Below are positions 11,145-29,467 of a stretch of DNA of 64,000 bases, one piece after another. Position 1 is the first letter of the stretch, and each line of letters begins with the position of its first letter. The notes beneath the pieces were generated by a model. That model saw only the letters and a list, made by a program, of their open reading frames with translations. It did not search any database and was not told the origin of the DNA. The stretch is from an uncultured Gemmatimonadales bacterium. GTDB taxonomy: Bacteria; Gemmatimonadota; Gemmatimonadetes; Longimicrobiales; RSA9. A program made the translations under genes and the position numbers. The stretch is taken from the NCBI GenBank assembly GCA_963708135.1, contig OY970192.1, positions 1,984,001 through 2,048,000 on the forward strand. Reading direction: 5' to 3'.

Positions 11145-11827
11145 CACGACTCCCCGCCAGGGTCCATTGCCACCGACCGCGCCTCCGCGCCGGCCGAACG
11201 CGCCGCCGCCTCGATGAAGGCGACGATCGCCCCCGCCGACTTCTCGCCCACGCGCACCTCCACGCCCGAGCTGACGTCCACCACGTCCGGCCGCAGCAGC
11301 GCCACCGCGCGGCCGACGTTCACGGCGTCCAGCCCTCCGGCGACGATCAGCCTCACGCCCTCGGGCACCCGCGCGCGCAACGAGGCCACCATCTCCCAGG
11401 AGAAGCGCGTGGCCGTGCCGCCCGCCGCGCGCGCGCTCCAGCCGTCGAGCAGCAGCCCGTCCACCACGTCGCCGTAGGCCTCGATGCCCGCCAGGAACTC
11501 CTCGCGCGTGCGCGGACGCAGCGCCTTCCATACCGCGAAGCCGCGCCCCCTCATCCGGTACACCAGCGAGGGCGACTCGCCGCCGTGGAGCTGGAGCACG
11601 TCCAGCCGCAGCCGCTCGGCCACGCGCAGGAGTCCGTCCCGACGCTCGTCCACGAATACGCCCACCCGGCGCACGCCGTCCGCGGCGGCGTAGATCGCCT
11701 CCGCCTCCTCCACGCTCCGGCTCCGGCGGCCGCCCGGCGCCAGCACGACGCCGGCGTAGCGCGCCCCCGCGGCCGCGGCCGCGCGGCCGTCGGCCGGCCG
11801 GCAGAGCCCGCAGATCTTCACGTCCAC
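11144..11827 (-). CDS. trpF: Phosphoribosylanthranilate isomerase
   Basis: VKICGL, LQLHG, AGGL, DVSSGVE; GTG start at 11827. Confidence 0.93.
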
Positions 11828-12660
11828 GAGACGGTCCCCTGCCCCGGCGCCGGGCCGTTCCGGCGCGCCTCTCGCGCGCGCGCCCGCCCCACCAGCGCCG
11901 CGGCCGCCGCGCGCACGTCCGGCGCGCGCATGAGTGACTCCCCGACCAGCACCGCGTCCACCCCTGCCGCCGCCAGCCGGTTGACGTCCGAGGCGTCGCG
12001 GATCCCGCTCTCCGCCACCATCACCCGGTCCGGAGGCACACGGGCCGCGAGCGAGACCGCGCGCGAGAGGTCGGTGCGGAACGTCGCCAGATCGCGGCTG
12101 TTCACGCCCACCACCGCCGCGCCCACCGCGAGCGCACGCTCCAGCTCGGCCGCCTCGTGCACCTCGACGAGCACCGCCATCCCGAGCTCCCGCGCCAGCG
12201 CGTGGAGCTCCGCCAGCCGCGCATCGTCCAGCAGGCGCACGATCAGGAGCACTGCGTCCGCGCTCACCGCCCGCGCCTCCCACACCTGCACCGGATCCAG
12301 GATGAAGTCCTTGCGGAGCACCGGCAGCGCCGCCGCGCGGCGCGCCGCCCGCAGATCCTCCAGCCCGCCGCCGAACCACTCCGCGTCCGTCAGCACGCTG
12401 AGCGCCGCCGCCCCCGCCGCCGCGTACGAGGCGGCCAGCTCCTCCACCCCGGCGTCCGGCCGGATCCACCCCGCCGAGGGCGAGCGCCGCTTGATCTCCG
12501 CCAGCAGCGCCACGGACGCACCGCCGCCGAGCGCCGCCTCGAAGGCACGCGGCGCCTCCGCCGACTCCGCAGCCGCGCGCAGCTCGGCCCGCCGCGGCAG
12601 CAGCCGCTCGATTTCCGCGCGCTTGGACTCTACGATACGACCCAGGATGTTCGACGACAC
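11818..12660 (-). CDS. trpC: Indole-3-glycerol phosphate synthase
   Basis: [34 protein letters not shown]. Confidence 0.96.
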
Positions 12661-12667
12661 GCTTGCG

Positions 12668-12716
12668 CTTCGGTTTGGCTTCGGGTAAGTTGGGTTCGGC
12701 GAATGTTCGGGCGTTC
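12668..12716. promoter_or_regulatory. Candidate LexA operator(s): GTTC-N7-GTTC (12694-12708) and CTTC-N7-CTTC (12668-12682)
   Basis: TTCGG direct repeats at 11 bp spacing in the divergent trpC/lexA intergenic region. Confidence 0.55.
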
Positions 12717-12754
12717 CGGCCGCCCCGGGATGCGGCCCGGCGCAGGTCCGACTC

Positions 12755-12834
12755 CCGATCCTGAAACGCGAATCCTGGATTCCATGATCCCGGATCCTCG
12801 ACCCTGACCCCTGATCCCTGGCTCCTGATCCCCC
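12755..12834. repeat. Degenerate heptanucleotide tandem repeat (GATCCCT-like)
   Basis: ...cgaccct gacccct gatccct ggctcct gatcccc immediately before the lexA ATG. Confidence 0.7.
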
Positions 12835-12837
12835 ATC

Positions 12838-13449
12838 ATGGCCCTGACCAAGAAGCAGAAGCAGATCCTGGACTATCTCCAGGAGTTCCTGGCGGAGAAC
12901 GGCTACTCGCCGAGCTTCGAGGAGATCGCGGAGCGCTTCGGCTACTCCTCGCTCGCCACGGTGCACGAGCACCTGGAGAATCTGCGAGGCAAGGGCTACA
13001 TCCGAAAGAGCTACAACGCGAGCCGCTCGATCGAGCTGGTGCCGACAGGGATGCGGGTGGCGGCCGTGGAGCTGCCGCTGCTCGGGAAGGTGGCGGCCGG
13101 CATGCCGATCGAGGCGATCGAGGAGCAGGAGACGATCGCGGTGCCCGAGGACTTCCTCGGCCGCGGCGGTGAGAACTACGTGCTGCGGGTGGCGGGGGAC
13201 TCGATGATCGAGGAGCAGATCCGCGATGGCGACTACATCATCGTGAACTCACGCAGCACGGCGAACAACGGGGAGATGGTCGTGGCGCTGGTCGGCGGGG
13301 AGGCCGCCACGGTGAAGAAGTTCTACCGCGAGCCGGACGGCCGCATCCGGCTGCAGCCGGCCAACATGGCCATGTCACCGCAGTACTACCGCCCGCACCA
13401 GGTGCGCGTCCAGGGCATCGTCATCGGCGTGATCCGGAGGTACGCATGA
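12838..13449 (+). CDS. lexA: SOS repressor LexA
   Basis: wHTH LTKKQ..GYSPSFEEIA, cleavage site VAAG, catalytic GDSM and TVKK. Confidence 0.97.
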   Translation: MALTKKQKQILDYLQEFLAENGYSPSFEEIAERFGYSSLATVHEHLENLRGKGYIRKSYNASRSIELVPTGMRVAAVELPLLGKVAAGMPIEAIEEQETIAVPEDFLGRGGENYVLRVAGDSMIEEQIRDGDYIIVNSRSTANNGEMVVALVGGEAATVKKFYREPDGRIRLQPANMAMSPQYYRPHQVRVQGIVIGVIRRYA

Positions 13450-13574
13450 TCAAGAAGCCGTTCCTCATCGGCCGCGGCACGCGCCGCAACCTCACCGTGC
13501 TCGTGCTGCGCTGCGCGCCCGCCTCCCCGATCCACGGCCCGTGGACGCTCAAGGCGGTGGTGTCGGCGAACTGA
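13446..13574 (+). CDS. Putative 42-aa small protein translationally coupled to lexA
   Basis: ATGA overlap with the lexA stop; GC-rich third positions; second copy differs by synonymous changes in TLKAVVSAN. Confidence 0.55.
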   Translation: MIKKPFLIGRGTRRNLTVLVLRCAPASPIHGPWTLKAVVSAN

Positions 13575-13774
13575 GGCGGCCGGCGCGCTGGCGGGAGTAG
13601 TGCCTGACTTCTGGCGCCGGTCGGCGGACGCGCACCTCTTCCCGGCCACCTGGCGCGGGGACGGGCGCGAGGTCAGGCGGCTGATCGCGCGCTCAGCCGT
13701 CCTCCCGCCACGCGAGTGCTCCGTGCGGCGACGGCGTCACCGTCAGCACAAGCACGCTCGAGCTGGCCCGCCCG
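13535..13774 (+). repeat. Direct repeat copy 1 (about 240 bp)
   Basis: Aligns without gaps to 14413-14652 (offset 878), about 17 mismatches by eye. Confidence 0.95.
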
Positions 13775-13826
13775 CCGCGCGAGCGGGTATCTTCAAGGGG
13801 TCAACGTCCCCCGCAAAGGATCACCG

Positions 13827-14057
13827 ATGTCGAGCGATGAACTGGAAGCCGTGGCCTTGAGCTTGCCCGTGGAGCAGAGAGCGCGCCTGGCCCATAAGCT
13901 GATCGCGAGTATTGACGATGAGCCGGCCGGCCAGATCGAAGAGGCATGGATCCAGGAGGTTGATCGGCGCGCCGAAGAGGTGCTGAATCGCGAGGTCGAG
14001 ACTGTGCCGGGCGATGAGGTGTTCCGCAAAGCGTTTGCGAAGCGGCCAAGGAAGTGA
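13827..14057 (+). CDS. Addiction-module antitoxin
   Basis: MSSDELEAVALSLPVEQRARLAHKLIAS...EAWIQEVDRR; AAAGGA RBS; GTGA overlap with the toxin. Confidence 0.88.
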   Translation: MSSDELEAVALSLPVEQRARLAHKLIASIDDEPAGQIEEAWIQEVDRRAEEVLNREVETVPGDEVFRKAFAKRPRK

Positions 14058-14347
14058 AGCCTCCTCCGTTTCACTCCGAAGCGGAAGAAGAGATGAACGC
14101 CGAAGCCGATTATTACGACAGCAAGGCCGAGGGCCTGGGCTGGGATTTCTTGGTGGAAGTCCGCAGCGTGGCTATGGATGCCGCCAGGAACCCGGGCCGC
14201 GGGAGCCCGTACAGCCGGCACACGCGGCGGCGACCCCTCCGCCGATTTCCTCATTGGCTGGTCTATATCCCATCGCTACAAGGGATTACCATCGTTGCAG
14301 TCGCGCATCCCAGTCGCAAGCCCGGTTACTGGACGGATCGGCTCTGA
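14054..14347 (+). CDS. RelE/ParE-family toxin
   Basis: FHSEAEEE..YY..GLG..F, RRFPH, IVAVAHPSRKPGYW. Confidence 0.9.
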   Translation: MKPPPFHSEAEEEMNAEADYYDSKAEGLGWDFLVEVRSVAMDAARNPGRGSPYSRHTRRRPLRRFPHWLVYIPSLQGITIVAVAHPSRKPGYWTDRL

Positions 14348-14412
14348 CGAAAGCCGTGGCAGGCAGCGCCCGGGCGGCGAGAGCTGAAGGGTACTGGCGC
14401 TATGCTGCTCGC

Positions 14413-14652
14413 CGGCCCGCGGACGCTGAAGGCGGTGGTGTCGGCCAACTGAGGCGGCCGGCGCGCTGGCGGGACTAAGGCCTGACTCCTGGCGCCGGTC
14501 GGCGGACGCGCACCGCTGCCTGGCCACCTGGCGCGGGGACGGGCGCGAGGCCAGGCGGCTGATCGCGCGCTCAGCCGTCTTCCCGCCCCGCGAGTGCTCC
14601 GTGCGGCGACGGCGTCACCGTCAGCACCAGAACGGTCGAGCTGGCCAGCCCG
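14413..14652 (+). repeat. Direct repeat copy 2 (about 240 bp)
   Basis: Partner of 13535-13774. Confidence 0.95.
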
Positions 14653-14698
14653 TGAGTTTGGGGTGAAAGCTGCACGGATGAGGCTCGCGACGCGGGCC

Positions 14699-14833
14699 TG
14701 CAGCCCTGACCGGAATAATCGTGGTCAGGGCTGCACGCATCAGCGCGTCCATCCAGCCGTGCTGTCCTGAGCCGAATCATTCTGGTCAGAGCGGCGGGCC
14801 CGAGCTGGGAAGCGCATGCGTGCAGCCCTGACC
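14699..14833. repeat. REP-like inverted repeat cluster
   Basis: TGCAGCCCTGACC (14699-14711) and GGTCAGGGCTGCA (14723-14735) form a perfect 13 bp stem; 14816-14833 is the 18 bp reverse complement of 14723-14740. Confidence 0.75.
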
Positions 14834-14935
14834 CCAACGCGGACAGGTCGAGCGCGCCACTCCGCCCGCGGCGCCACTGTGGGATCCGCGCGTGTCGCCC
14901 GTCCAGCGCATCACCGTCGCCGCGTGAGCGGCCGT

Positions 14936-15031
14936 TTGCCGCATCCGTCGGAGACCATCGGCCCCGGGCTATTGAACAAGATCCTGCGCGATACCGGGTT
15001 CTCTCGGGACCGGCTCATCAGCGTGTTGTGG
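14936..15031 (+). pseudogene. HicA-family toxin C-terminal remnant
   Basis: LPHPSETIGPGLLNKILRDTGFSRDRLISVL resembles HicA C-terminal helices; no intact N-terminus. Confidence 0.6.
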
Positions 15032-18000
15032 CTTCGCGGCCGCACGCCGCGGTGCGAGGAGGCAGTACAGCGCCGGCGTGACCGTGAGCACCAGCACGGT
15101 CGAGCTGGCCAGCCCGCCGATCAGCGCATAGCCCAGCGCGTTCCAGATGTTGGCATCGGCGTTGCCGCCCGACAGCACGAGGGGCAGCAGGCCGAAGATC
15201 GTCGTCGCCGTGGTCATGAGGATCGGCCGCGCGCGGTCGAGCGTGCCCTGCACCACCGCATCGCCCACGCGTACGCCGTCCTCGCGCACCAGGTGATTGA
15301 CGTGGTCCACGAGCAGGATCGCGTTGTTCACCACGATGCCTCCCATCATCACGACGCCCACCACCGCCTCGCGGGTGAAGCTCGCGCCGGTCAGGTAGAA
15401 GGTCAGGAAGACGCCGATGAGCGCCATCGGCACGGTCAGAAGCACCACGAACGGCTGGCGCAGCGACTCGAAGAGCGCGGCGGTCACCATGAAGACGAGC
15501 AGCAGCGAGACGAGCAGGACCCCGTACATCTGCCCCTGCTCCTGGTCGGACCACTGCCACGCCTGCCGGCCCGAGACGCTGTAGCCGGGCGGCAGGAGCG
15601 TGGTGGCGAGGACCGCGTCCTCGACCCGGTCGCCCAGCTTGGTCGGCCCCCGGAACTCGTAGCTCACGGTCCGCTCGTACTGCTGGTCCTCGCGCCGGAT
15701 GCTCGTCTGGATCGGCTGCTCATCGAGGGAGGCGACGTCCCCGAGGCGCACCGCCGGGCGGGGCGCACCCGCGCCGTCCGCGCCGCCCCCGCTGCCCGCC
15801 GCGCCGGCTCGGTCCGCCAGCCCGCCCGCGGCACCGCGGGTGGGTGGCTCCGCCGGCGCACGGTCGGTCGCACGCGGTCCGGAGGGGTTCGCCGCCTCTC
15901 GCCCGCCGACCGTGAGCAGCACGTCCATCAGGGTCTGCGTGTCCAGCGTCCGGGCACCGGCGCGCTTGACCGCGAGCCGGAGCTCGCGGCCGCCGACCTG
16001 AACGACGCCGCCGCCGGCGTCGCCTTCCGTGGCGGCGGCAACCTGCCGCACGACGTCGCGCGCCGTGAGCCCGTGCGTGGCGAGGCGGGGGCGGTCGAGC
16101 CGGAGCACCAGCTCGCTCGCGCGGTCGCTCTCGTACCACGCCCCGGCGGCGTTCGTGTCCACGTCGCCGATGCGCGTGAAGCGCTCGAGGCGCCGGCCCA
16201 GCGCCTCGGCGATCTCCCTGGTCTCGTCGAAGTTGTAGCCGCGCACCTGGATCGAGTACATCGGGGGGCTGCCGCCGCCGCCGTAGAAGGTCGGGCCGAA
16301 GCCGTAGACGTGCACCGTCGCGCCACCGAAGCGGTAGCTCTCGGCCACCAGCCGGTCCTTCAGCGCGAGCGGCACGGCCGTGTTCTCGAGCGAATCGGGG
16401 AACGTGACCCGGATGTCCGCGTAGCGGGCGCCGACGCGGGTGACGAACCGGGCGACCTGCGGCGCCCGCTCGAGCTCCGCCTCGAACCACCGTGCCAGCG
16501 CGTCCGTGTGCGCCAGCTCCTCGCCGCGCGGCATGAGGATCTGGATGTCGAGGTAGGTGCGCTCGCCTCCCCAGCTCCGCCACACCACGCCGCGCGTCAC
16601 GTCCTTCTGGAAGAGCCGGCCCGAGCCGGCGAGCAGCGCGAGCGCCAGCGTGATCGGTACCCAGGGCCTGCGCACCCCGAAACGAAGCGAGGCGACGTAG
16701 CCGCCGCGCAGCGCCCGGAGCGCTCGGCCACCGGCGCGGCGCAGAGCGCCGGGAGTGAGCGGGGCGGAGGCGTCGCCTGGCAAGGAATGCGAAGGGAGCG
16801 GGCCATCCCCGGGAACGCTTCCGGCCGGGCGCGGCTGCCCGAAGCGGCGCAGCAGCCGCGCGGCCATGGCGGGAATGAAGCTGAACGCCACCGCCGCGCT
16901 AGCCGCGAGGCTCAGCCCGACCACCGCGGCGAGGGGCACGTAGTAGGCGCGCAGGTCGCCCTGGAGATAGACGAAGGGGACGAGCACCACGACGGTCGTG
17001 AGCGTCGACGCCAGCACGGCCAGGACGACCTCCCGGCTGCCGCGCTCGGCGGCCGCCTCCGCCGCTTCGCCCAGCGATCTCCGCCGGTAGACGTTCTCGA
17101 GCACCACGATCGCGTTGTCGACCACCAGCCCGAAGCCCATGGCCAGCCCCATGAGCGTGAGCACGTTCAGGCTGAGGCCGCCGAGGTAGACCAGGTTGAG
17201 CGTGAGCAACGCCGAGAAGCCGATCGTCGCGAACGCGATTGCCGCCGACCGGAACGAGCGCAGGAAGGCGAGCAGCACCAGAAAGACCGCGAGCGCCGAA
17301 ACGAGGGCGCGCGTGCGCAGGTCGGTGAGCTGCGTGCGGATCGCCGCGCTCTCGTCCTGATCGAGGAGCAGCCGCGTGCCGGGCGGCAGCCCGCCGTGCG
17401 TCGCCGCGAGCCGTGCCTTCACGCGGTCCGCCACCGCGACCGCGTTGGTCCCCGGCTCGCGGTGTACCTCGAAGCTCACGGCCGGGAAGCCGTCGATCCG
17501 GTAATAGCTGTCCGCGTCCTCGTAGGTCTCGTGCACGCGGGCCAGGTCGCCGAGGCGGATCGCTACGCCGCCCCGCTCGACGAGCGGCGCGCGCAGCAGC
17601 GCCGGGACCGAGGCGACGCGGTCGCGCAACGTCACCGTGCGCACGCGGCCGCCCTCGTCCACCGCACCCGCCTCCCGCACCAGGTTGAGCCCGCGGACGC
17701 GGCGGGCGACCTCGTCCGGATCGAGCCCGAGCGCCTGCGCACGGCCCGGATCCAGCTCGATCTCGAGCAGGCGACGCCGGCCGCCGCGGACCTCGATCGC
17801 GCCGGCGCCCTCCACCTGCCTGAGCGCCGGCACGATCCTGTCCTCCGCATACGCGCGCAGCGCCTCCGGCGTGTACGGCCCCGTCACCGTGTAGACCAGG
17901 AACGGTTTGGCCTGCGCGCGCAGTGCCTCGGGGACGTACGGCTGGATGCGCGGCGGCGAGGCGCCCGCCGGCAGCTCGCGCGCGAGCGCCGCCAGCCGCT

Positions 18001-18334
18001 CGGAGAGCGCCAGGCGCGCGAACTTCATGTCCGTCCCGCGCGCGAACTGCACCTCGATCTGCGCCCGGCCGACGCCCGCCGGCGCGTCCGACACCGACGT
18101 GACCTTCGCCACGCCGCGCACCTCGTGGACGGCGGACTCGATCGGCGAGGTGACGAGCGCCTCCGTCGTGCGCGCGGAGGCGCCCGGCCAGAGGGCGGTC
18201 ACCGAAAGCTGCGGCAGCTCGGTATCCGGCAGCAGCTCGAGCGGGATGTTCCGCCACGCGGCGGCGCCGAGCACGCAGACGGCCAGGTAGGCCATCGCGA
18301 CCGTGACGGGGCGGCGGATCGAGAAGCGGATCAT
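14969..18334 (-). CDS. RND (AcrB/AcrD/AcrF family) efflux permease 2
   Basis: MIRFSIRRPV, GLVVDNAIVVLEN, GIVVNNAILLVD, RARPILMTT. Confidence 0.95.
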   Translation of the reverse strand: MIRFSIRRPVTVAMAYLAVCVLGAAAWRNIPLELLPDTELPQLSVTALWPGASARTTEALVTSPIESAVHEVRGVAKVTSVSDAPAGVGRAQIEVQFARGTDMKFARLALSERLAALARELPAGASPPRIQPYVPEALRAQAKPFLVYTVTGPYTPEALRAYAEDRIVPALRQVEGAGAIEVRGGRRRLLEIELDPGRAQALGLDPDEVARRVRGLNLVREAGAVDEGGRVRTVTLRDRVASVPALLRAPLVERGGVAIRLGDLARVHETYEDADSYYRIDGFPAVSFEVHREPGTNAVAVADRVKARLAATHGGLPPGTRLLLDQDESAAIRTQLTDLRTRALVSALAVFLVLLAFLRSFRSAAIAFATIGFSALLTLNLVYLGGLSLNVLTLMGLAMGFGLVVDNAIVVLENVYRRRSLGEAAEAAAERGSREVVLAVLASTLTTVVVLVPFVYLQGDLRAYYVPLAAVVGLSLAASAAVAFSFIPAMAARLLRRFGQPRPAGSVPGDGPLPSHSLPGDASAPLTPGALRRAGGRALRALRGGYVASLRFGVRRPWVPITLALALLAGSGRLFQKDVTRGVVWRSWGGERTYLDIQILMPRGEELAHTDALARWFEAELERAPQVARFVTRVGARYADIRVTFPDSLENTAVPLALKDRLVAESYRFGGATVHVYGFGPTFYGGGGSPPMYSIQVRGYNFDETREIAEALGRRLERFTRIGDVDTNAAGAWYESDRASELVLRLDRPRLATHGLTARDVVRQVAAATEGDAGGGVVQVGGRELRLAVKRAGARTLDTQTLMDVLLTVGGREAANPSGPRATDRAPAEPPTRGAAGGLADRAGAAGSGGGADGAGAPRPAVRLGDVASLDEQPIQTSIRREDQQYERTVSYEFRGPTKLGDRVEDAVLATTLLPPGYSVSGRQAWQWSDQEQGQMYGVLLVSLLLVFMVTAALFESLRQPFVVLLTVPMALIGVFLTFYLTGASFTREAVVGVVMMGGIVVNNAILLVDHVNHLVREDGVRVGDAVVQGTLDRARPILMTTATTIFGLLPLVLSGGNADANIWNALGYALIGGLASSTVLVLTVTPALYCLLAPRRAAAKPQHADEPVPREPGIAQDLVQ

Positions 18335-18416
18335 GGGGCCAAGTGAGCCCCGGCGTACAAAGGTGCTATGGGTGCCGTCGGCCACGGCATCGCGCGGAGC
18401 ACCGAGTGGGCGTCGA

Positions 18417-19679
18417 TTAGCGCGGCCATTCCAGGCGGTAACGGCTGATCCGCTCGACGTCGAGGCTGTCGAAGGTGACCGCCCAGAGCGTGTCTCCCCG
18501 GATCACGACAGGCTGTTCGGTCGGGTACCCCGAGTAGCGGACTCCCTTCGGGAGCGCGACGCGTCCGAGCCAGCGGCCGTCGTGGGCAAAGACGTCGAAG
18601 GCGCCCTTCGAGGCAAGGTCCCAGGTGTGCTTCACGCCCGTGCGCGCCGCGACCTGGGGAGGCACCGTCGAAAGCACGCTTGGCTGGTTCGGCCAGACCC
18701 AGACGCGCCCGTCACCGGGGAATATGATTCGCGCGTAGGCCGGCCGCTCCTCGGGGAGATCGACCGGCACCTGGATCACCTTCTGTTCCAGGAACCGACG
18801 CTCAGCGCTCGAGGCGTGCACGGGAGTCCAGGCTCGACTGATCCTCAGGACACCCGGTGCCCAGCCCGATACGTCGAAGCTGTAGGTCCGCGGGCAACCG
18901 ACTGCCACGGCTCCCCTGGGGCTCATCGCCCACGTGACCTTGGGGACATAGGGCGCCCGTTGGTCCGGGTAGAACCCGACGCGCGCTCCGATCGTGTCGA
19001 GGGTCGGGCAGCCTACCTGAAAACGCGACTCAGCCCAGACGGTGTCCTCCAGCGCGCCGCTGGAATCGATGCGCGCGTAGATCGGCCGTGGAAACGTGAC
19101 CCGCAGATCGTCGTCCAGCGGGGGGACGAGTCCGACCCAGAGGGAACCGTCGCCATGGAAGGCGATGGTGGTCTCGCTGTAGGACAGCGGCATGCCTGCC
19201 GGCCTTGCGAAGCTGGTCACCCGACCCTGAGGATGGAAGATCTTCACCCGACTGTTGCCCAGGTCGTAGGCCGCCACGGATCCGTCCCGGCCGACCGACA
19301 TCCCGACGACGCCGTACACCTCCGCCGGACCCTGACCCAGGCGGGCGACAAGGCCTCCGTAGGTCCCATCGGCCCGGAAGCGCTGGATTCCCTCTTTCGG
19401 CTGGTACGTGTACACATCGCCGTTCGGACCCACGGCGAACGCGAGCACCTTGTAGAGGCTCGTCTCCGGCTCCCCTTCCACGGAGCCGTAGCTCCGGACG
19501 AGCTCGAGGCGCACCGTGCCCTCCGCCGCGGGACGGAGGTTGTGCACGGTGAGCGTGTCGCCGGCCCGGCGTCGCTCCACGCCGGATGAATTCGACCGTT
19601 CCGTACTCGAGCACGCGCCCGGCAGGCCGGCGCACATGAGGAAGACAACCAGGCCGCGGCCGACCCTGCGGCCCTTCAC
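18417..19679 (-). CDS. Beta-propeller (NHL/6-bladed-like) lipoprotein A
   Basis: Signal peptide with PGA-C lipobox-like site; GQGPAEV, FDVF..DGRWLGRV.LP, C-terminal DSLDVERI.RYRL. Confidence 0.8.
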   Translation of the reverse strand: MKGRRVGRGLVVFLMCAGLPGACSSTERSNSSGVERRRAGDTLTVHNLRPAAEGTVRLELVRSYGSVEGEPETSLYKVLAFAVGPNGDVYTYQPKEGIQRFRADGTYGGLVARLGQGPAEVYGVVGMSVGRDGSVAAYDLGNSRVKIFHPQGRVTSFARPAGMPLSYSETTIAFHGDGSLWVGLVPPLDDDLRVTFPRPIYARIDSSGALEDTVWAESRFQVGCPTLDTIGARVGFYPDQRAPYVPKVTWAMSPRGAVAVGCPRTYSFDVSGWAPGVLRISRAWTPVHASSAERRFLEQKVIQVPVDLPEERPAYARIIFPGDGRVWVWPNQPSVLSTVPPQVAARTGVKHTWDLASKGAFDVFAHDGRWLGRVALPKGVRYSGYPTEQPVVIRGDTLWAVTFDSLDVERISRYRLEWPR

Positions 19680-19780
19680 GCCGGGTCCTCGGAGCTACGC
19701 TTCCTCCGCCCGCGCCGGCCGACGGCCCTCTCGCCCGCCGCCTCCGAGATTGCGCGGCCGTGTGACCACCCACCCGACGG

Positions 19781-19840
19781 GCACGCGGCCAGGTACACCA
19801 TCGGCGCGGCAACGGGGCGGCGGATCGACAAGCGGATCAT
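19781..19840 (-). pseudogene. Diverged copy of the RND2 5' end
   Basis: MIRLSIRRPVAAPMVYLAAC versus MIRFSIRRPVTVAMAYLAVC at 18275-18334. Confidence 0.85.
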
Positions 19841-19903
19841 GACTTCGAAGGAGTCTGGTCCGGCGCCCGCGACAGAAGCACAGTTTTCCACGGGGCCATC
19901 CCA

Positions 19904-21094
19904 CTACTGCTTCAGGATCCGGTATCCGACGACGGAGGGCACATCGAATTCGTCCTTGCTCACGCCCCAGAGCATCCCGGCGCCCGCCGCGTAGGGGACG
20001 AAGCCATGCGGCCCGTGGAGGGTAGCCATCGGCCGGCCGGTCCGCCCATCGAGGACCGTCAGGTCGTCGGTCCCGTAGGACGCGGCCGGCCGGGCAAGCC
20101 AGACGTCTCCGTTGGTGCCCACGAATACGCGATCGATCGGGGGCATGTACCTGGGGAGGTGGAGCGAGTCCCGGGCAAGGCGCATCGCCTCGTCCGACCT
20201 GGTACGCAGCAACAGGAATATCCGGGCCATGCGCTCTCGGACGCTGTCGGCGACGCGCTGGCCGATGGGCAGAGGCCGGTAATCGAGTGCTTCGTGGAAG
20301 ATCGTGTCCGCAGTGGGCCGGATACTCGTGACGTCGAATCGAGCAGCCCCTGCCGCCGTGGGTAGCCGCCGGGTTACCACCACGACCGCGCCGCCGCCCG
20401 GGGCGACCGCCACCACGTCGTCGCTTCGGAACGGATAAGGGAAGTTGATGATCGAATGACCGGTCCGGATGATGCCGTATGCGTGCTCGTTGCTCACCGA
20501 ACCGAGGCGGCCGATCTCGCCGCCCGCCGAATCCAGGAGCAGAAGCGGCAGGGCCGGTGACGAGCGCCTTCCCGTCGACGGGATCCCCAGGAAGCTTCCC
20601 CCGGCAAGCATTGCGGCGGGGGGCGTGGGCCGGGAAGAGAGCGGGAGCATCGGGCCGCGAACCGTAACATCTCGCAGCAACCGACCAGCGCTCGACCAGA
20701 GGGAAACGCGATACCTCGGCCGGTCTATAGTGACCAGCGTATCGCCGAGCCAACCGAGTGCGCGGAGCCCGCCGAATTCTCCCGGGCCGGCGCCACGACG
20801 GCCGAAGGAGCGCAGAAAACGGCCGCGCGCATCGAAGACCGCTACCGTCTGATCGAGGCGATCCGCCACGAACACGTCGCCCCGGCGCGAGACCGTGAGG
20901 TCGGCGATATCGCTCAGCACGAAGCTCGAGCCGCCATCGCCCGGGATTACGACGGCACGGTCGAGCCGCCATGTGGTGCCCTGGCCGTCAAGGGAGACTG
21001 CGGCAAAGGCTACGCCGATAGCAACCACAATCATCCCGACTGCGAGCCTCGCCGGCGCCTCCGCGAAAGGTCGGTACTTTATGGCTGTTGGCAC
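19904..21094 (-). CDS. Beta-propeller (NHL/6-bladed-like) secreted protein B
   Basis: GGAGG RBS before GTG; hydrophobic leader; VFDARGRFLRSFGRRGAGPGEF; C-terminal KDEFDVPSVVGYRI. Confidence 0.82.
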   Translation of the reverse strand: MPTAIKYRPFAEAPARLAVGMIVVAIGVAFAAVSLDGQGTTWRLDRAVVIPGDGGSSFVLSDIADLTVSRRGDVFVADRLDQTVAVFDARGRFLRSFGRRGAGPGEFGGLRALGWLGDTLVTIDRPRYRVSLWSSAGRLLRDVTVRGPMLPLSSRPTPPAAMLAGGSFLGIPSTGRRSSPALPLLLLDSAGGEIGRLGSVSNEHAYGIIRTGHSIINFPYPFRSDDVVAVAPGGGAVVVVTRRLPTAAGAARFDVTSIRPTADTIFHEALDYRPLPIGQRVADSVRERMARIFLLLRTRSDEAMRLARDSLHLPRYMPPIDRVFVGTNGDVWLARPAASYGTDDLTVLDGRTGRPMATLHGPHGFVPYAAGAGMLWGVSKDEFDVPSVVGYRILKQ

Positions 21095-21265
21095 TGATTG
21101 CCCTCCCGCCGCGTCACATTAGGTGGATCGCCTTGATCCGATCTGTGGCATTAGCAAATGCGGCACCACGACAGGAGCGCGGGCCGCGTGCGAGCCGGAG
21201 ATTACCTGGGAACCAGAACGGCCTCGACCGCGGGCGCGCCCAGAGGGCTTGGCCGCTCGAGTAAC

Positions 21266-21454
21266 GCGGCGGCGCGGCCAGGCCGCAGCCGCACGTCGAG
21301 GACGGCCGTGTTCAGCCCGCTCGTCTCGTCGCTGCCGGCCACGGCGGCCTGGCGGCGGATGCGGACGAGGACCGAGGCGACGTCGCCGTCGCGCCGCAGC
21401 GCCGCCTCGACCCGCGCGGCCTTCTCCGACGTCGCCTCCATGGTGGAGCCGCGG
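21266..21454 (-). repeat. Near-identical copy of an internal RND1 segment (27579-27767)
   Basis: Ungapped alignment at offset 6313, about 8 mismatches; reads [20 protein letters not shown]...[15 protein letters not shown]. Confidence 0.95.
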
Positions 21455-21735
21455 ATCTAGTGAATCCTTTGCGACCGCGAATGCGTGACCCATGGCTGCG
21501 GCCATCACCCGAGCACCGAGAGGCACCGCGACAATCGCCTTTACCCTGCCACTGCGGCCGATCACGTTCCAAAGGCTGCGGCCGCGCACAACCTGCTCGC
21601 GTTGCAGCCAGATGGCGCCGTCATTGGCCCCGAAGCCGGCCGTCACCGGAGGGAGATGCTTCGGCAGGAACAGCGCCTCTCGGACCCGTTTCTCAGCCGC
21701 GCCGCGCGCCGTAATGGCCGGCCCGCGTGCATGCA
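21455..21735 (-). pseudogene. C-terminal remnant of a B-like beta-propeller gene (C)
   Basis: VREALFLPKHLPPV...DGAIWL...VAKDSLD parallels ARDSLHLPRYMPPI...GDVWL...SKDEFD of protein B. Confidence 0.75.
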
Positions 21736-21737
21736 GT

Positions 21738-22265
21738 CTAACTCCCCCGCCGCGATCCCCGCGGATTGTTGAGTTCCACGTTGTGCATCTCATCGTCCGC
21801 ACTGAACCCGTCGCCGGTGAGCCACGTTCCGTTCTGCTGGATCCTCGTCTTAACCGTGCTCCCCACACAATGCGCGCTCGGACAAAAGTAGAGGTTTTCC
21901 GTCTCGATCCGGCGGTTCCCCTCCCGGGTGACGAGTACGACGCTGCCGCGTGCCAGCACGGTCTCCGTTCGCTCATTCAGGGTCCCGGACCGGGAAGTCA
22001 GAGCCGCGGTTTCTCGACCGTCGGCGCCGAAGATCGTGACGCGCACCCCCCAAAGCTCGTCCCGCGCCGAGTCTCTGAAAGCGTAGGCGCTGTCCGCGGT
22101 GAGCACGCCCCGCCGGATCCCGCCCGGTGTGATATTGTGCTGCACACCAAACATCACCCAGTCGGCCGCCGACCCGCGCTCTCGGGCAGCAGCTGTCGGT
22201 TCGTGCGCCACCCCGCTGCACGCTGGCGCGATCAGGATTAAGCTGATCCGCGCGAGTCTCTTCAT
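21738..22265 (-). CDS. LptC-like LPS export periplasmic protein
   Basis: APA-C leader; LTADSAY, LTSRSG, ARGSVV, IETENLY, GDGFSAD beta-jellyroll pattern. Confidence 0.72.
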   Translation of the reverse strand: MKRLARISLILIAPACSGVAHEPTAAARERGSAADWVMFGVQHNITPGGIRRGVLTADSAYAFRDSARDELWGVRVTIFGADGRETAALTSRSGTLNERTETVLARGSVVLVTREGNRRIETENLYFCPSAHCVGSTVKTRIQQNGTWLTGDGFSADDEMHNVELNNPRGSRRGS

Positions 22266-22320
22266 TCTCTGCCCTCTTCCGGGCTCCACGGGTTACGGAG
22301 CTACGGGAACTCAGGTACCA

Positions 22321-22925
22321 CCGTCATCCCAAGCCCTCTCGCCGGATCCGCTTGAGGTCCAGCCTGCCGGCGATGAGCGGTCACAGCATGTACTCGCGAA
22401 ATACGTCGGGCTCTCCAGCCGGTTACCCCGAGCCGGATCTCCTTCGATTGCGCTACGCCATGAAGCCGACAGCCGCGGCGGAATCGAGGCTGCACAGGGC
22501 CAGCCAGCGCTGGCGGCGCCTCGATGGGGCTCAACTTTCCCCCCTCGTCCGGGCGGGAGTGCGGTTCGTCAACGGCGTCAGCCAGCAGCGAGAAGAGCTG
22601 CGGACGCGGGCCGCCTGATCAACCCCAGATCCTACAACGTTTGAGAATACCTCCGGCGGCGGAGTCCATATCCGATTGATGCTCAGCATGCTTGGGCCCA
22701 GCCGGCTGTGTGGAACGTGTACTCTCACGGATAGCCGAGCGCACCCTTTGCCCCACCACCCCCGTTGACCTCAGGGATCAGGGGCGCCCATGTTGTCGCG
22801 CCGGTGAACTCGTTGCCGGCGGCCCGTTGAAAGTCCCGCCTGTGAGCAGTTCCGCTCCACACGCAGTCGTTGACTACGAATTCGTCGAACACCACCAGCC
22901 TCTGAATGGGTGGACTATAGCGCTC
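22321..22925 (-). pseudogene. Heavily decayed A-like beta-propeller gene (D), interrupted by an IS256 remnant
   Basis: 22323-22457 aligns at DNA level to 18425-18560; fragments WAPLIPEV, GYP*EYTFHTAGW, MLSINRIWTP match RAPYVPKV, GCPRTYSFDVSGW, VLRISRAWTP of protein A; stops and frameshifts. Confidence 0.72.
22490..22653 (+). mobile_element. IS256-family remnant (transposase C-terminus and right end)
   Basis: RASQRWRRLDGAQL..LVRAGVRFVNG...AA-stop followed by ..CAACGTTTGAGAATACCTC, resembling IS256 termini as I recall them. Confidence 0.7.
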
Positions 22926-22947
22926 AGGTGCCGCCGCGACGCGCCCG

Positions 22948-24423
22948 TCAGCGCCGCGGCAGTTCCCGTCCGGAACGCACAAAATCCGGTGACCTGGCTA
23001 TAGCCGTTCCCTCGACGCCCCCAGCCTTCGCGCGCGTGGAACAGGAACGCGTGGAGTTCGTGCACAATTCCCCTGCGGGACCTATAAGCCGTTCGCTGCC
23101 CTGAACATTCACTGACGCCCGACGAGCGTCGCTTCCGCAAACACACAGCACCCGCAGAATGTCCGTGTCCAACGAATCCCTGGCCTGCAAAATGACGAGG
23201 GTTGTAGACCCGGCCACGACCGTGCCGTCTGACGGGAGGCGCAGGCTCCCGAGAACTGCCCCGCTGGAGCGGAGTAGCAGCCAATCGGCGGACGCAGCCG
23301 AGGAGTGCGGCGTTTCCCGAACCCACACCGCGTGGTCCGAGGCCCCGATGATCGCATCGTAGCTAGGCAGAACATGGCTCGCCGGAGTGGCGTCCACCGC
23401 TCGCGCATAGGCCGCCCTGATCTTGACCCAGTCACCCGCCGAGAGCGCGCTACGCCATCGTTTCCACTTTTGCTCGGTCGACTGCTCCCGTCTCACGCGC
23501 TCGTGCTCGATATCCTCGTGGGTCGCAGGTTCGTGCCCTATCCTTACCGCCGTGGTTGGCAATTCCCTCCCCTGCATATCGAAGCGTCGCAGCTTCAGTG
23601 AATCACTCGTGCCAACCCACAGGGTCCGCCCCACCAACGCGGAATGCGTCCGCGGACCAAGGATCACGTCCTGGAAACTCCTGAAGCGGGGTTCGCTGTA
23701 CAGCCACGCTCGGGGATTCTGTTGCCGCGTCAGTACTCGGAGTGGGCGGGACCCGCCGTCAAAAAACGTGAACGTGGTCGTATCAATGACCGGCATCTCG
23801 CCCGGCCTGTCCTGAGCGCTGCCCCGGGAGCCTCGATCAGCAAAAACCACTGAACACCCGGAGACAAATCCGACCAACGTGGGCCGGAGCTGAGAGAATG
23901 CGGACAAAGAGGGATGCCACGTAGCAAGCACCGCACCTTGGCTAGAGAGGTGCGTAACTCTGACGAGCTGGACATCCCAGATACACAGGCCTCCAACTGG
24001 ATCGAAGCCGATCCTCCCAATGGCCTCCGTCATCCCGGGCCCGCTGCCGCGGCCCCCGAAACTGCGAAGGTACCTCCCGCCTAGCGTGAATAGCTCCACT
24101 CGCTGAGTGTACTCGTCAGCCACGGCGAGAAGGCTGTCGGCAAACATTGCGACGCCCCGGATCTTGCCGAAGGCTGCGGGACCTTCTGCCGCCGCCCCCC
24201 CGATCCTAGCTATCTCCCGGTATCGAAGCGCCGGGTATCCATCTGTCCGCATTTGGCCGTTGGCGGGATCCCCGCCTGCACACGCGCCTGCTGGCGCACC
24301 CAGAGCAACCCACAAGAGAACGAGGTAAGCCGAGCATCTGTGCCGGGTATCCGAGACTCTGGCGGCTCCAATGCGGCACGCGATCGGAAACTGACGCACC
24401 CTACCGCTGTTGCCGGCCCCCAA
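22948..24423 (-). CDS. Beta-propeller (NHL/6-bladed-like) lipoprotein E
   Basis: AGA-C lipobox-like site; GRYLRSFGGRGSGPGM, VWVRE, RDSLDTD; start uncertain and C-terminus may be read-through. Confidence 0.75.
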   Translation of the reverse strand: MGAGNSGRVRQFPIACRIGAARVSDTRHRCSAYLVLLWVALGAPAGACAGGDPANGQMRTDGYPALRYREIARIGGAAAEGPAAFGKIRGVAMFADSLLAVADEYTQRVELFTLGGRYLRSFGGRGSGPGMTEAIGRIGFDPVGGLCIWDVQLVRVTHLSSQGAVLATWHPSLSAFSQLRPTLVGFVSGCSVVFADRGSRGSAQDRPGEMPVIDTTTFTFFDGGSRPLRVLTRQQNPRAWLYSEPRFRSFQDVILGPRTHSALVGRTLWVGTSDSLKLRRFDMQGRELPTTAVRIGHEPATHEDIEHERVRREQSTEQKWKRWRSALSAGDWVKIRAAYARAVDATPASHVLPSYDAIIGASDHAVWVRETPHSSAASADWLLLRSSGAVLGSLRLPSDGTVVAGSTTLVILQARDSLDTDILRVLCVCGSDARRASVNVQGSERLIGPAGELCTNSTRSCSTRAKAGGVEGTAIARSPDFVRSGRELPRR

Positions 24424-24434
24424 ACATGACCTCC

Positions 24435-25095
24435 CAGTACTGTCCGGTTAAGCTGAGATGATGATGCCGTAACGGATTGCTACATGGTGCGTTACGACGT
24501 TTTGGTTGCCGCACCGATTTGAACTTCGCTCCTGCGCCGCTATCCTGCCCGGACCCCCCGGCCGGAGTAGCGCATGAATCCCGGAAGCACGGTTTTCTCA
24601 CAGGTGATGGCCCACGCATCTCGCTTCGCGCTCGATCGGTGCATCCGCCGCTACCACGGCAACCGGAGGGTCCGACGTTTCTCGTGTCGGGACCAGTTCC
24701 TCGCCATGGCCTTTGCCCAGCTCACCTACCGGGAGAGCCTGCGGGACCTCGAGGCCACCCTCGGGGCGGCCCCCGAGAAGCTGTACCATCTTGGCTTCCG
24801 TTCGCCGCTCTCTCGCAGCACGCTCGCCGATGCGAACGAGAATCGCGACTGGCGCATCTACGCCGATTTCGCTCAACGCCTGATCGCAGACGCGCGTCGG
24901 CTCTACGCCGACGACACGTTGGGGATCGAGCTCACGAACACCGTCTACGCGCTGGATTCCACCACGATCGACCTGTGTTTGTCGCTGTTCCCCTGGGCCT
25001 CGTTTCGTACGAGCAAAGGCGGCGTGAAGCTGCATACACTGCTCGACTTGGCAGGCAGGATCCCCGCCTACGCCTGGATCACGGACGCGAGCACC
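24435..25095 (+). mobile_element. Truncated IS4-family element (DUF4372-type transposase 24574 to about 25095)
   Basis: Left end CAGTACTGTCCGGTTAAG; VFSQ, FSCRDQFLAMAFAQLTYRESLRD, SRSTLADAN, ALDSTTIDL, VKLHTLLDL; homology stops after ITD. Confidence 0.9.
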
Positions 25096-25122
25096 AAGGG
25101 AGCCAAGCCGCAACTGCGAATC

Positions 25123-25138
25123 AGCAACGCCCATGCCC
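25123..25138 (-). promoter_or_regulatory. Sigma54 -24/-12 promoter
   Basis: Minus strand GGCATGGGCGTTGCT = GG-N10-GC with GGCA and TTGCT; about 230 bp downstream of a bEBP gene. Confidence 0.7.
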
Positions 25139-25227
25139 CGTTTCTCCAGTTAAGGGCGCATTTTGTAACCGATGCTACAGCAATGCGTTGGGCCGTCCGC
25201 TTCGCCTCGCAGGGGGCATCACCGGAC

Positions 25228-25347: not shown

Positions 25348-25365
25348 GCCCCAACAGTGCTGCAT

Positions 25366-29400: not shown

Positions 29401-29467
29401 TGGCCACGGCCAGGAAGAACATGGCCACGGCCACGGGCCGTCGGGCGGAGACGGAGGGAAGCGACAC
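26333..29467 (-). CDS. RND (AcrB/AcrD/AcrF family) efflux permease 1
   Basis: [39 protein letters not shown]. Confidence 0.95.

Follow-up and report, generated by a model that had tools for sequence, protein, structure and literature searches.

Fragments of RND permease genes at the seams of a rearranged lexA–trpD locus in an uncultured Gemmatimonadales bacterium

The locus and its cargo

The window, that is, the whole stretch of DNA analysed (64,000 nt of an uncultured Gemmatimonadales genome, here G000, with other G numbers denoting relatives' genomes), contains the genes trpD and lexA. These are adjacent in 6 of 6 relatives checked, and in G000 are separated by an 18.8-kb RND block (Table 1). 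The gene order MFP-OEP-RND1-RND2 is also found in relatives, with RND1 and RND2 adjacent in 32 of the 33 relatives' loci in which both genes are in view; in G000 the two are parted by 8 kb of low-GC3 cargo. The two adjacent paralogous permeases of relatives' loci resemble tandem RND pairs of the MdtB/MdtC type, whose models RND1 and RND2 both match below cut-offs; the cargo sets G000 apart from that type. RND2 is the genome's single orthologue at E ≤ 1e-150 and by comparison with relatives has a C-terminus that is native-like through PALY. RND1, RND2 and both propellers, A and B, have intact reading frames. The small open reading frame (ORF) after lexA lies in DNA that is conserved 3' of lexA in relatives, as far as window position 13588. 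Its peptide ends in GPWTLKAVVSAN, and the GPWT-like ending with SAN and a stop is kept in 4 of 6 relatives, with G012 and G001 diverging.

Table 1. Features of the lexA–trpD interval, in window coordinates.
Feature	Position	Strand	Remarks
lexA	12838–13449	+	Pfam LexA_DNA_bind and Peptidase_S24; native left flank of inserted block
Small ORF	13446–13574	+	42 aa; overlaps lexA stop; final ~40 nt are the start of R1
R1 (repeat copy 1)	13535–13774		Small-ORF end, 145 nt, RND2 scrap
Scrap s1 (RND2 TM12)	13728–13777	-	GGRASSSVLVLTVTP; 50 nt, 88% to 15070–15119; unrelated tail and stop after
Toxin-antitoxin pair	13824–14347	+	Antitoxin 13824–14057, ParE-like toxin 14054–14347; between R1 and R2
R2 (repeat copy 2)	14413–14652		Dead copy of small-ORF end, scrap s2
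Scrap s2 (RND2 TM12)	14606–14652	-	47 nt, 91.5% to parent 15070–15119
Segment X	14653–15069	-	Between s2 and its parent site; includes RND2 last 33 codons and stop (14969–15069)
RND2 permease	14969–18334	-	Intact, 1121 aa; ACR_tran E 5e-169
Propeller A	18417–19679	-	Predicted lipoprotein; stop 82 nt before RND2 ATG; GC3 0.84
RND2 5' scrap	19786–19841	-	MIRLSIRRPVAAPMVYLA; 56 nt, 84% to 18280–18335
Propeller B	19904–21094	-	396 aa; DUF5128 6-bladed beta-propeller, E 8e-7; GC3 0.79
RND1 internal piece	21266–21454	-	189 nt, 95.8% to 27579–27767; RND1 codons ~568–630
Propeller C remnant	21455–21697	-	tblastn to propeller B residues 303–384, 34%, E 3e-8
LptC-like paralogue (cargo)	21738–22289	-	TIGR04409 E 8e-17; 67% nt identity to another genomic place
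orf491 (cargo)	22948–24423	-	Fourth propeller-family gene; propeller B residues 76–105 match at 60%; GC3 0.70
IS4-family element, left half	24429–25095	+	Cut at 25095; DUF4372 and IS4 transposase N-terminal part
Sigma-54 activator	25366–26406	-	Sigma54_activat E 4e-53; GC3 0.82
RND1 permease	26333–29467	-	Intact; ACR_tran E 2e-240
OEP	29475–30845	-	Remainder of RND operon
MFP	30853–32052	-	Remainder of RND operon
trpD	32269–33753	-	Native right flank of inserted block; homology to relatives' trpD stops ~32288

The cargo is compositionally foreign, with a GC3 of 0.69–0.84 versus 0.91–0.95 in the RND, MFP and OEP genes. Lowest in the toxin-antitoxin pair is the toxin (0.69; antitoxin 0.74), which matches ParE_toxin at E 2.4e-4 and 22.1 bits, i.e., slightly below the cut-off of 23. 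PF09720 (E 1.9e-13) and TIGR02574 are matched within the pair as well, and the closest relative (73% aa, a Gemmatimonadales MAG) lacks flanking repeats. Propeller A has no Pfam match, and tblastn finds no match between propellers A and B; both match one common gene of G028 (26%, E 1e-16 for A; 25%, E 1e-15 for B). Across 300 genomes of the order, propeller B has no relative closer than 37% aa, and orf491 matches NHL/DUF5128 weakly. The sigma-54 activator has no domains besides AAA+ and HTH, and the longest ORF for it overlaps the RND1 3' end.

Of propeller C the C-terminal 81 residues alone are left, cut ~10 codons short of the end. The full length of the IS4-family element is 1327 nt, and the half found here has six other full-span copies that are at least 99.4% identical, plus one shorter copy. 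These two broken genes, the half IS4 and the doubly truncated propeller C, show repeated deletion within the same stretch. Segment X in turn harbors, within ~14699–14835, a single-copy palindromic element whose 13-mer arms occur three times genome-wide, all at this locus, and whose hairpin has a z of −3.8 (1 of 200 shuffles folds equally well). Neither a tyrosine or serine recombinase nor a tRNA was found within the window, and the genome's seven tyrosine and one serine recombinases all lie outside it. The genome has four Ku genes, three LigD-polymerase genes and a ComEC homologue.

RND fragments at the seams

I use here the term 'scrap' for pieces of the RND genes that are found outside of those genes. 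The original prediction placed four such fragments in the orientation of their parents, and all four indeed are present as direct repeats of those parents. They are the sole matches to their parents in the whole 5.45-Mb genome (E 2.9e-9 for s1, 2.4e-10 for s2, 3.5e-8 for the 5' scrap and 5e-82 for the RND1 piece), and a tblastn search for additional RND fragments returned none besides the four. Every scrap sits exactly at a seam of unrelated segments, homology ending abruptly on both sides; four seams carry 47–240-nt direct copies of sequence that is 0.4–6.3 kb distant. Identity of scrap to parent ranges from 84 to 96%, i.e., the scraps differ in age. Direct orientation is the rule for local repeat pairs of this genome (366 of 422), and in the scraps it is weightless either way. 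Neither microhomology nor an end-joining signature is readable at the seams.

The two presumed RND2 3' ends, s1 and s2, both exist, but their parent is an internal TM12 piece (GGLASSTVLVLTVTP), 34–49 codons upstream of the RND2 stop, rather than the gene end. Nor are they independent: R1 and R2 form a 240-nt direct repeat (93% identical, E 3e-97) of which s1 and s2 are the right ends, so that one origin and a single duplication account for both. The three direct copies of the 47–50-nt stretch have a common right boundary, and the sequence beyond s1 and s2 is not RND-like. Several of their differences had been described as synonymous; in s2, 3 of 3 are third-position, and in s1, 3 of 5, the other two changing residues. 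Derivation of these scraps from another allele is not borne out, as resident RND2 is a better match than any of the 34 orthologues compared (s1, 40/45 versus ≤37/45 in the orthologues; s2, 39/42 versus ≤36/42).

The RND2 5' end said to lie behind propeller B is there as well, with its own ATG at 19840, which 63 nt separate from the preceding stop of propeller B (the parent ATG is at 18334). It matches resident RND2 at 46 of 55 positions and orthologues of other genera at up to 45 of 55. Against the resident there is one mismatch in the first 29 nt and eight in the last 26, and at codon 11 the scrap has the family-majority codon, from which resident RND2 differs at two bases. This scrap probably arrived together with propeller B. 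It is chiefly here, with a fragment no closer to the resident than to other genera's orthologues, that the proposed import from diverged loci finds support.

The RND1 piece abuts, as had been claimed, the propeller C remnant, which has a propeller B-like translation. Within its surrounding ORF the piece is out of frame. It differs from the resident gene by 8 nt in seven codons, two of the changes being synonymous and five non-synonymous, and relatives' sequences match the stretch at 72–79%, among the matches listed, versus 96% for the resident. Import from a diverged locus is not supported for this piece; resemblance to the resident along with mostly non-synonymous decay is the pattern which the original prediction itself had named as contrary to it. 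Judged from its sequence, the piece was copied recently from the resident gene and is decaying mostly non-synonymously.

Relatives' loci

The sole exception to RND1-RND2 adjacency among relatives is G012, where a toxin-antitoxin pair lies at the seam and 53 nt of the RND2 end, present in duplicate, bracket a 353-nt insert. The G012 and G000 repeats are different, adjacent parts of RND2, and eight more regions with copies of the G012 repeat element, when screened, displayed no comparable flanking duplication. The seam between RND1 and RND2 as a site of accretion thus holds insofar as insertion does occur there, but such insertion is rare. Propeller genes flank the RND operon in 6 of 35 relatives' loci. 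In G186 one immediately precedes RND2, the two overlapping at ATGA, and in G192, G104, G062 and G028 one directly follows RND2. Compared with a G028 orthologue, the TM12 parent stretch has 92% identity, and for the initial 26 nt at the RND2 5' end the figure is 96%. No donor locus was found in 300 genomes of the order or in two metagenome scans, no structural allele was found either, and the middle insert is without a DNA homologue except for the IS, the sigma-54 core and LptC.

How the scraps may have arisen

The scraps have perhaps an even chance of being the junction scars of several separate illegitimate, that is, non-homologous, joining events within a rearrangement-prone stretch. The native MFP-OEP-RND1-RND2 operon, between lexA plus the small ORF and trpD, would have been split and flanked by foreign cargo, i.e., the toxin-antitoxin pair, four propeller-family genes or remnants, the LptC-like gene, the sigma-54 activator and the half IS4. 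The RND1 piece would have been copied recently from the resident, with neutral decay since. A resident-like RND2 TM12 piece may have been placed beside the spacer following the small ORF and later duplicated along with the rest of the 240-nt repeat, whose copies now lie on either side of the captured toxin-antitoxin pair. The 5' stub would be what is left of another, diverged RND2 gene imported with propeller B. As the likely machinery we infer either break repair through Ku/LigD end joining or replication template switching, both of which can insert short stretches of nearby DNA as well as capture foreign fragments. The RND1 piece and the 3' scraps have intact parents with native sequence on either side, so that an account by simple insertion and target duplication would have to assume a truncated ancestor. 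The order of events is one of inference, given that no structural allele or donor was found, and, with scrap identities differing as they do, a single mechanism for all four is an assumption.

A possible but doubtful alternative is repeated import of cargo from diverged RND loci, with conserved RND sequence serving as anchor, the other end joined illegitimately, and scraps as leftover anchors. The 5' scrap, which begins precisely at the ATG and does not resemble the resident, fits import better than it fits joining, and its codon 11, the propellers flanking relatives' operons (including that of G186), the foreign cargo GC3 and the ComEC homologue are in keeping with import too. Both RND2 scraps come from stretches that are alike between genera, which is also expected from anchor-based recombination or from detection bias. 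Against import, the RND1 piece and 3' scraps resemble the resident genes. Anchored exchange, moreover, replaces the anchor without duplicating it, so that an illegitimate join is required at every seam, or extra events, or sister-chromosome exchange. The non-RND-like sequence after s1 and s2 means that there is no displaced native 3' end, and no donor was found, propeller B reaching at best 37% aa in the 300 genomes and the middle insert having just the partial DNA homology given above. Of the integrase-independent accretion originally envisaged, the absence of a window recombinase and the foreign cargo stand, but anchoring by RND sequence is opposed by the resident-like scraps and the missing donor.

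This import model, homology-facilitated illegitimate recombination, has been published for other loci (PMC5361080, PMC2884548), the Rhs orphan and T6SS effector-immunity arrays being those for which it is proposed. As described in PMC5361080, the Rhs/CDI orphan 3' ends and T6SS arrays resemble the present locus in that a conserved gene part is the proposed anchor, without an integrase, and in that old gene ends are displaced downstream in the same orientation. Unlike those arrays, the G000 locus is without variable C-terminal modules or immunity genes, its scraps span a mere 15–20 codons or come from inside the gene, one of them is a 5' end, and cargo lies both upstream and downstream. Of the three independent scraps, moreover, two resemble the resident genes and not those of other strains.

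Decidedly unlikely is the reading that RND-plus-propeller units, once duplicated into a local array, later lost most of each extra RND copy to deletion, leaving stubs beside propellers A and B. The pattern of RND piece, 106–171 nt, and propeller gene does occur twice, propellers do follow RND2 immediately in four relatives, and this genome's local repeats are mostly direct, with broken genes indicating frequent deletion. Propellers A and B, however, have no detectable likeness even though the stub is 84% RND2-like, the internal RND1 piece would require two precise deletions, scrap ages are far apart (84% versus 96%), and the cargo GC3 is unlike that of the RND genes.

Phage 21 and e14 of E. 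coli are integrative elements with icd as their target gene, of which they bring along a spare 3' end. An origin of the G000 repeats as attachment-site scars, left by small elements of this kind with the RND2 3' end as target, is very improbable, even though direct repeats of a gene 3' region, synonymous differences and a bracketed insert are common to both, the three copies share one right boundary, and G012 has a similar 53-nt pair. The window lacks recombinase and tRNA genes, the inserts are tiny (417 and 638–828 nt), and the distal copies continue into sequence other than the RND tail, i.e., without a displaced native gene end. The G012 and G000 repeats, furthermore, span different gene parts, and the eight additional G012-element regions screened lack such duplications.

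Least credible of all are assembly artefacts, i.e., chimeric joins: although this is a single-contig soil MAG and the only run containing the genome (X1, a soil metagenome) may be its source sample and hence not independent, copies that are 4–16% off their parents are unlike mis-joins of identical repeats, major frames are intact, and, among the eight X1 contigs listed out of 70, short ones cover 13732–14487, 20549–21326 and 21406–22155 with 0–1 differences, bridging four junction sides (R1 to the toxin-antitoxin pair, that pair to R2, and the RND1 piece to its neighbour on either side), with none of the eight spanning the 5' scrap or the R2-to-X junction.

Illegitimate joining has experimental precedents in other high-GC hosts. 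The inserts at break-repair scars in Streptomyces measured 30, 42 and 83 bp, with two of the three derived from near the break, and up to 18.8 kb (PMC5869714), and in a four-Ku Sinorhizobium heterologous DNA is captured into breaks (PMC6379672). S. ambofaciens and S. meliloti are like G000 in having short inserts at joins, some copied from nearby, homology-free capture of heterologous fragments, and several Ku genes. Unlike in those experiments, a break and a role of Ku are putative in G000, and the copies are 47–240 nt, old (84–96%) and all direct. The G012 copy of the RND2 end shows an independent case and is counted for the joining-scar reading. The scraps look like ordinary joining scars rather than the products of a dedicated cassette or new gene-capture system.

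Pump-Gene Fragments and Their Seams

Exactly four fragments of the efflux permease genes RND1 and RND2 are present, all direct repeats of their parents, as seen both upon self-comparison of 8000-34000 and when 13450-26400 was searched by BLAST across all 5.45 Mb of the genome (E-values of 3.5e-8 to 5e-82 with the latter). That is, each of the four same-orientation fragments of the original prediction was recovered. No further copies were found in the genome by BLAST, nor were additional RND, MFP or OEP fragments found upon a protein-level search of the non-RND stretches, MFP and OEP being other genes of the pump operon. Homology to the parent breaks off sharply at both edges of every fragment, with unrelated neighbours, and the seam inserts are copies of sequence located 0.4-6.3 kb away.

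Features of the efflux locus, in window positions; percentages are identities to the parent unless noted
Feature	Position	Strand	Details
trpD	32269-33753	-	
MFP	30853-32052	-	
OEP	29475-30845	-	
RND1	26333-29467	-	AcrB/AcrD/AcrF family (ACR_tran), E 2e-240, full-length
Sigma-54 activator without N-terminal domain	25366-26406	-	
IS4-family element	24429-25095		left 667 nt of 1327 nt
orf491, propeller-family gene	22948-24423	-	DUF5128/NHL-like match, E 0.079
LptC-like gene	21738-22289	-	
Propeller remnant	21455-21697	-	81 residues; abuts RND1 piece
RND1 piece	21266-21454		189 nt, 95.8%; parent RND1 27579-27767
Propeller B	19904-21094	-	DUF5128, E 8e-7, residues 56-107 only; then 63 nt, then RND2 5' stub
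RND2 5' stub	19786-19841		56 nt, 84%; parent RND2 start 18280-18335
Propeller A	18417-19679	-	no family match; 82 nt to RND2
RND2	14969-18334	-	ACR_tran, E 5e-169, in two stretches
Segment X	14653-15069		between s2 and the RND2 parent site, including the RND2 end; single-copy palindrome
RND2 3' scrap s2	14606-14652		47 nt, 91.5%; parent RND2 15070-15116
Repeat copy R2	14413-14652		93% to R1
Toxin-antitoxin pair	13824-14347	+	between R2 and R1
RND2 3' scrap s1	13728-13777		50 nt, 88%; parent RND2 15070-15119
Repeat copy R1	13535-13774		93% to R2
42-aa ORF	13446-13574	+	overlaps lexA stop (ATGA)
lexA	12838-13449	+	beyond: trpC, trpF, trpB

The two RND2 3' scraps, s1 and s2, both are real, but they are not independent, as together they terminate a single 240-nt direct repeat (copies R1 and R2). 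This repeat consists of the last ~40 nt of a small ORF, then 145 nt of spacer, and then the scrap. Leftward, R1 runs into the intact, conserved small ORF, whereas what comes before R2 is the toxin-antitoxin pair, and R2 therefore looks like the secondary copy. Both scraps encode GG(L/R)ASS(T/S)VLVLTVTP followed by SPHGALA.REDG and a stop, while resident RND2, along with that of relatives, instead reads on at this point as ALY(C/L)L. The parent thus is found in its native context, with s1 and s2 being isolated pieces. The 5' stub begins 1 base ahead of its ATG and is 18 codons long, and the RND1 piece represents codons ~568-630 of RND1, translated out of frame. Two ORFs, 19695-20972 and 21119-21976, were rejected as false frames running across scraps.

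The spacer of the repeat folds no differently from its shuffles (z of -0.9 to -1.6), and an exact 29-mer of the repeat had 0 matches among metagenome contigs, i.e., within a set that may omit this or very near genomes. A scan of 13300-15200 found neither promoters nor terminators. No tRNA is present in the window, and a search of the seams for RNA families returned nothing beyond an M23 match below threshold (31.8 bits versus a gathering score of 41.2), which falls within RND2 coding sequence (17416-17469, minus strand) and probably is due to chance.

Orientation relative to the parent should not be read as evidence in itself. Particularly, among 422 local repeat pairs genome-wide (lengths of 40-400 nt, identity of 82% or more, no more than 20 kb apart) there are 366 that are direct and 56 inverted, so that same orientation is the norm. 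At least one such pair is found in 72 of 273 20-kb bins, with the scrap locus holding 5 pairs. Of two other repeat loci that were examined, one proved to be a REP-like motif of simple make-up and the other a mobile element present in duplicate. The genome has a dispersed, GAGTGGG-rich REP-like motif (2925789-2938546) and a three-gene unit, including a tyrosine recombinase, which is duplicated at ~10-kb spacing (818885-823381 and 829067-833563).

Concerning the neighbouring genes, propellers A and B are near full-length matches to one and the same gene of one relative (G028). The antitoxin matches PF09720 (E 1.9e-13) and overlaps by 4 nt the toxin gene, whose product scores 22.1 bits with ParE_toxin, which is below the cut-off of 23, and has its nearest homologue in a record of Gemmatimonadales. 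The LptC-like gene has a paralogue (67% nucleotide identity) at genome 1490541-1490989, and adjoins, at 22490-22657, a repeat of 165 nt of which three more copies exist (76-77%). RND2 is Ala/Gly/Pro-rich at ~15900-16100 (residues ~810-870); alignments of its protein with every one of the relatives listed are interrupted at residues 805-812, the Pfam match also being in two stretches. Within segment X, just past RND2, a long imperfect palindrome (14692-14840, minus strand) has 13-mer arms seen nowhere else in the genome, and its folding is much stronger than that of shuffled sequence (z -3.8). The 42-aa ORF, without match in Pfam and NCBIfam, may be a lexA-linked small protein. It ends GPWTLKAVVSAN here, with a GPWT-like ending with SAN and stop kept in 4 of 6 relatives (G005, G006, G009, G014), and diverges in G012 (GPFILQAVVSSN) and G001 (GPWTVRAIATSN).

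Assembly Support

One run, X1, a soil metagenome, contains 59% of the sampled words and may be the source sample of this genome. Among the 8 of 70 contigs listed, short ones match 13732-14487, 20549-21326 and 21406-22155 with 0-1 differences. The divergence of 4-16% between copies is a further argument against mis-joins. Runs X2 and X3 were rejected as support, as they contributed only short, diverged pieces, with joint sides of 20-29 nt, taken as stemming from other organisms. One X1 contig, accounting for 2.8 of 6.6 in depth, has other bases than the window at 15098, 15113, 15116 and 15128, all four being synonymous third-position variants upon reading of the RND2 frame. A second, related RND2 allele, that is, seems to co-occur in that sample.

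Origins of the Fragments

The RND1 piece is 96% identical to the resident gene versus 72-79% for relatives, among the matches listed. Its 8 differences fall within 7 codons, of which 2 are changed synonymously and 5 non-synonymously. Judged from these differences, the piece would have been copied locally and be decaying neutrally, and the idea that it represents another strain's allele is not supported.

For RND2, the stretches compared are 42-55 nt in length and the power of these comparisons is low. Scrap s2 matches the resident at 39/42 and s1 at 40/45, with 34 orthologues reaching at most 36/42 and 37/45, respectively, albeit for a stretch so highly conserved that the resident itself is 38/42 to a G028 orthologue. 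The synonymous differences originally remarked upon in these copies are borne out in part: two third-position differences are common to s1 and s2, but s1 alone has amino-acid changes.

The 5' stub differs in this regard. It matches the resident at 46/55 and other genera's orthologues (33 usable) at up to 45/55, near-equal values which fit a foreign origin; the resident RND2 start reaches up to 46/55 with those same 33. Against the resident, the stub has a single mismatch over its first 29 nt and 8 over its last 26, which is a between-orthologue pattern. Codon 11 of the stub is GCC and that of the resident ACG, with orthologues having G at the first base in 29/33 and C at the third in 21/33. 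From such comparisons, the best reading of the stub is that some other RND2 gene began with it. Import of cargo from diverged homologous loci, as had been predicted, fits the stub, which is as far from the resident as from other genera, but not the resident-like RND1 piece and 3' scraps.

The Operon in Relatives

The relatives compared are other genera of the same family. In 6 of 6 (G001, G005, G006, G009, G012, G014), trpD and lexA are convergent neighbours, with trpF and trpB then following. Homology past lexA continues in relatives through the small ORF to 13588, and that of trpD stops at ~32288, hence about 18.7 kb is extra here. The order MFP-OEP-RND1-RND2 is conserved in relatives. Of 35 relatives' loci (one, L108, from an unpublished genome), both permease genes are in view in 33 and adjacent (gap of less than ~200 nt) in 32, versus a gap of 8.0 kb in this genome. 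The exception, G012, has a 1.48-kb gap (11487-12970 of its locus, L012) containing a HEPN/nucleotidyltransferase pair and a dispersed palindromic repeat. As to what lies downstream of the operon, the largest group sharing a neighbour is 8 of 33 relatives, and no ancestral site can be named.

Pump genes (RND, MFP and OEP) have a GC3 of 0.91-0.95, versus 0.69-0.84 for the toxin-antitoxin pair, propellers, LptC-like gene, orf491 and activator. The pump resembles native genes and occurs once in the genome, while the cargo is foreign, with more than one origin.

A partial parallel is seen in G012, which has a 53-nt, 92% copy of its last 18 RND2 codons 406 nt downstream (L012 7913-7965 and 8319-8371). 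That pair flanks a 353-nt insert carrying a member of the dispersed palindromic repeat family. No comparable flanking duplication was found at eight further regions with copies of the G012 element, nor does segment X resemble that element. The other 34 relatives' loci hold no RND scraps except for one 39-nt match, in L018, that likely is due to chance.

Propeller-family genes directly adjoin the RND operon in 6 of the 35 loci (L089, L090, L092, L093, L017, L018). In one, L090 of G186, the stop codon of the propeller gene and the start codon of RND2 overlap (ATGA), though this propeller and propeller B are not closely related. No RND1 orthologue was found in G186 (best match 35% identical), but with the genome 91% complete absence is not implied. 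A donor of propeller B was not found among 300 genomes of the order (best amino-acid identity 37%), and 137 pattern matches among JGI metagenome contigs included no relative. With the DNA of the 8-kb middle insert, only the IS, sigma-54 core and LptC matched in those 300 genomes. The recurrent pairing of propeller genes with the operon, in one case with overlapping stop and start codons, hints that propeller lipoproteins may be functionally linked to the pump.

Possible Mechanisms

The scraps would be scars of illegitimate joining, with the 5' stub brought in together with imported cargo and the enzyme behind each seam a matter of inference. Ku/LigD scars should be homology-free junctions into which short pieces of the host's own genome are inserted, in hosts possessing Ku and LigD; the seams here match, and this genome has both (4 Ku and 3 ligD_pol matches over cut-off). 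These Ku/LigD-polymerase genes, at G000:C1 343959-345285, 1506447 and 5278706 and at 520091, 1509035 and 5275397, include two sets close together and represent an unusually rich end-joining kit. Published work describes, with Streptomyces break repair, insertion of 30, 42 and 83 bp, with two of these inserts from near the break, and of up to 18.8 kb (PMC5869714) and, with a four-Ku Sinorhizobium, capture of heterologous DNA into breaks (PMC6379672). Nearby copied pieces might alternatively originate from template switching in replication restart (PMC2621351).

Conserved RND stretches could instead have served as homology anchors for imported cargo, as in homology-facilitated illegitimate recombination, a model published for T6SS and Rhs arrays (PMC5361080, PMC2884548) and one that is partly supported here. 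It fits the recurrent propeller association as well as the 5' stub, since fragments in such displacement arrays should come from other strains' alleles. The resident-like 3' scraps and RND1 piece, however, would require extra steps, as would the duplicated anchors. Also expected would be a natural route of DNA uptake and a donor locus sharing the anchor. A ComEC homologue is encoded, though genes of this kind are common, with 10 of 14 controls having one. A propeller-RND2 arrangement does exist in G186, but no donor for the cargo was found among the 300 genomes of the order or the metagenome contigs.

Less well surviving is a 3'-end integrative element, which should encode a recombinase, whereas the inserts here (417 and 638 nt) hold only the palindrome and the toxin-antitoxin pair. 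In addition, the displaced native gene end should follow the distal repeat, but what follows s1 and s2 is SPHGALA.REDG and a stop. Independence from integrases, as predicted, is supported: the window has no tyrosine recombinase (7 Phage_integrase matches genome-wide, nearest more than 500 kb off), no serine recombinase (1 in the genome, elsewhere), and no recombinase or integrase among 44 scanned ORFs. An integron cassette array is not supported either, as it should have an integrase next to the array and its boundaries should share an attC-like site, while the seams here lack a common sequence and hold different gene pieces (RND2 TM12, RND2 start, RND1 internal).

Implications

The locus adds one more case to the types of recombination scar already known. 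For annotation of metagenome-assembled genomes, the stubs give rise to false fused ORFs such as those crossing the 5' stub and the RND1 piece. Should homology anchoring hold beyond the 5' stub, then recombinase-free displacement arrays would extend from toxin loci to efflux operons. A wider conjecture, which I consider improbable, is that in Ku-rich Gemmatimonadales the ends of a conserved tandem RND operon are recurrent landing sites for foreign genes of accessory function, namely periplasmic propellers and toxin-antitoxin pairs, added without recombinases by homology-anchored and illegitimate joining, with each addition leaving a pump-gene stub, i.e., an efflux counterpart of Rhs/T6SS orphan arrays. 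If the scraps are indeed scars of illegitimate joining, then this would be a clear natural case of an operon being reshaped by such joining, the host being a soil bacterium rich in end-joining genes, with foreign genes captured and short copied fragments left at the seams.
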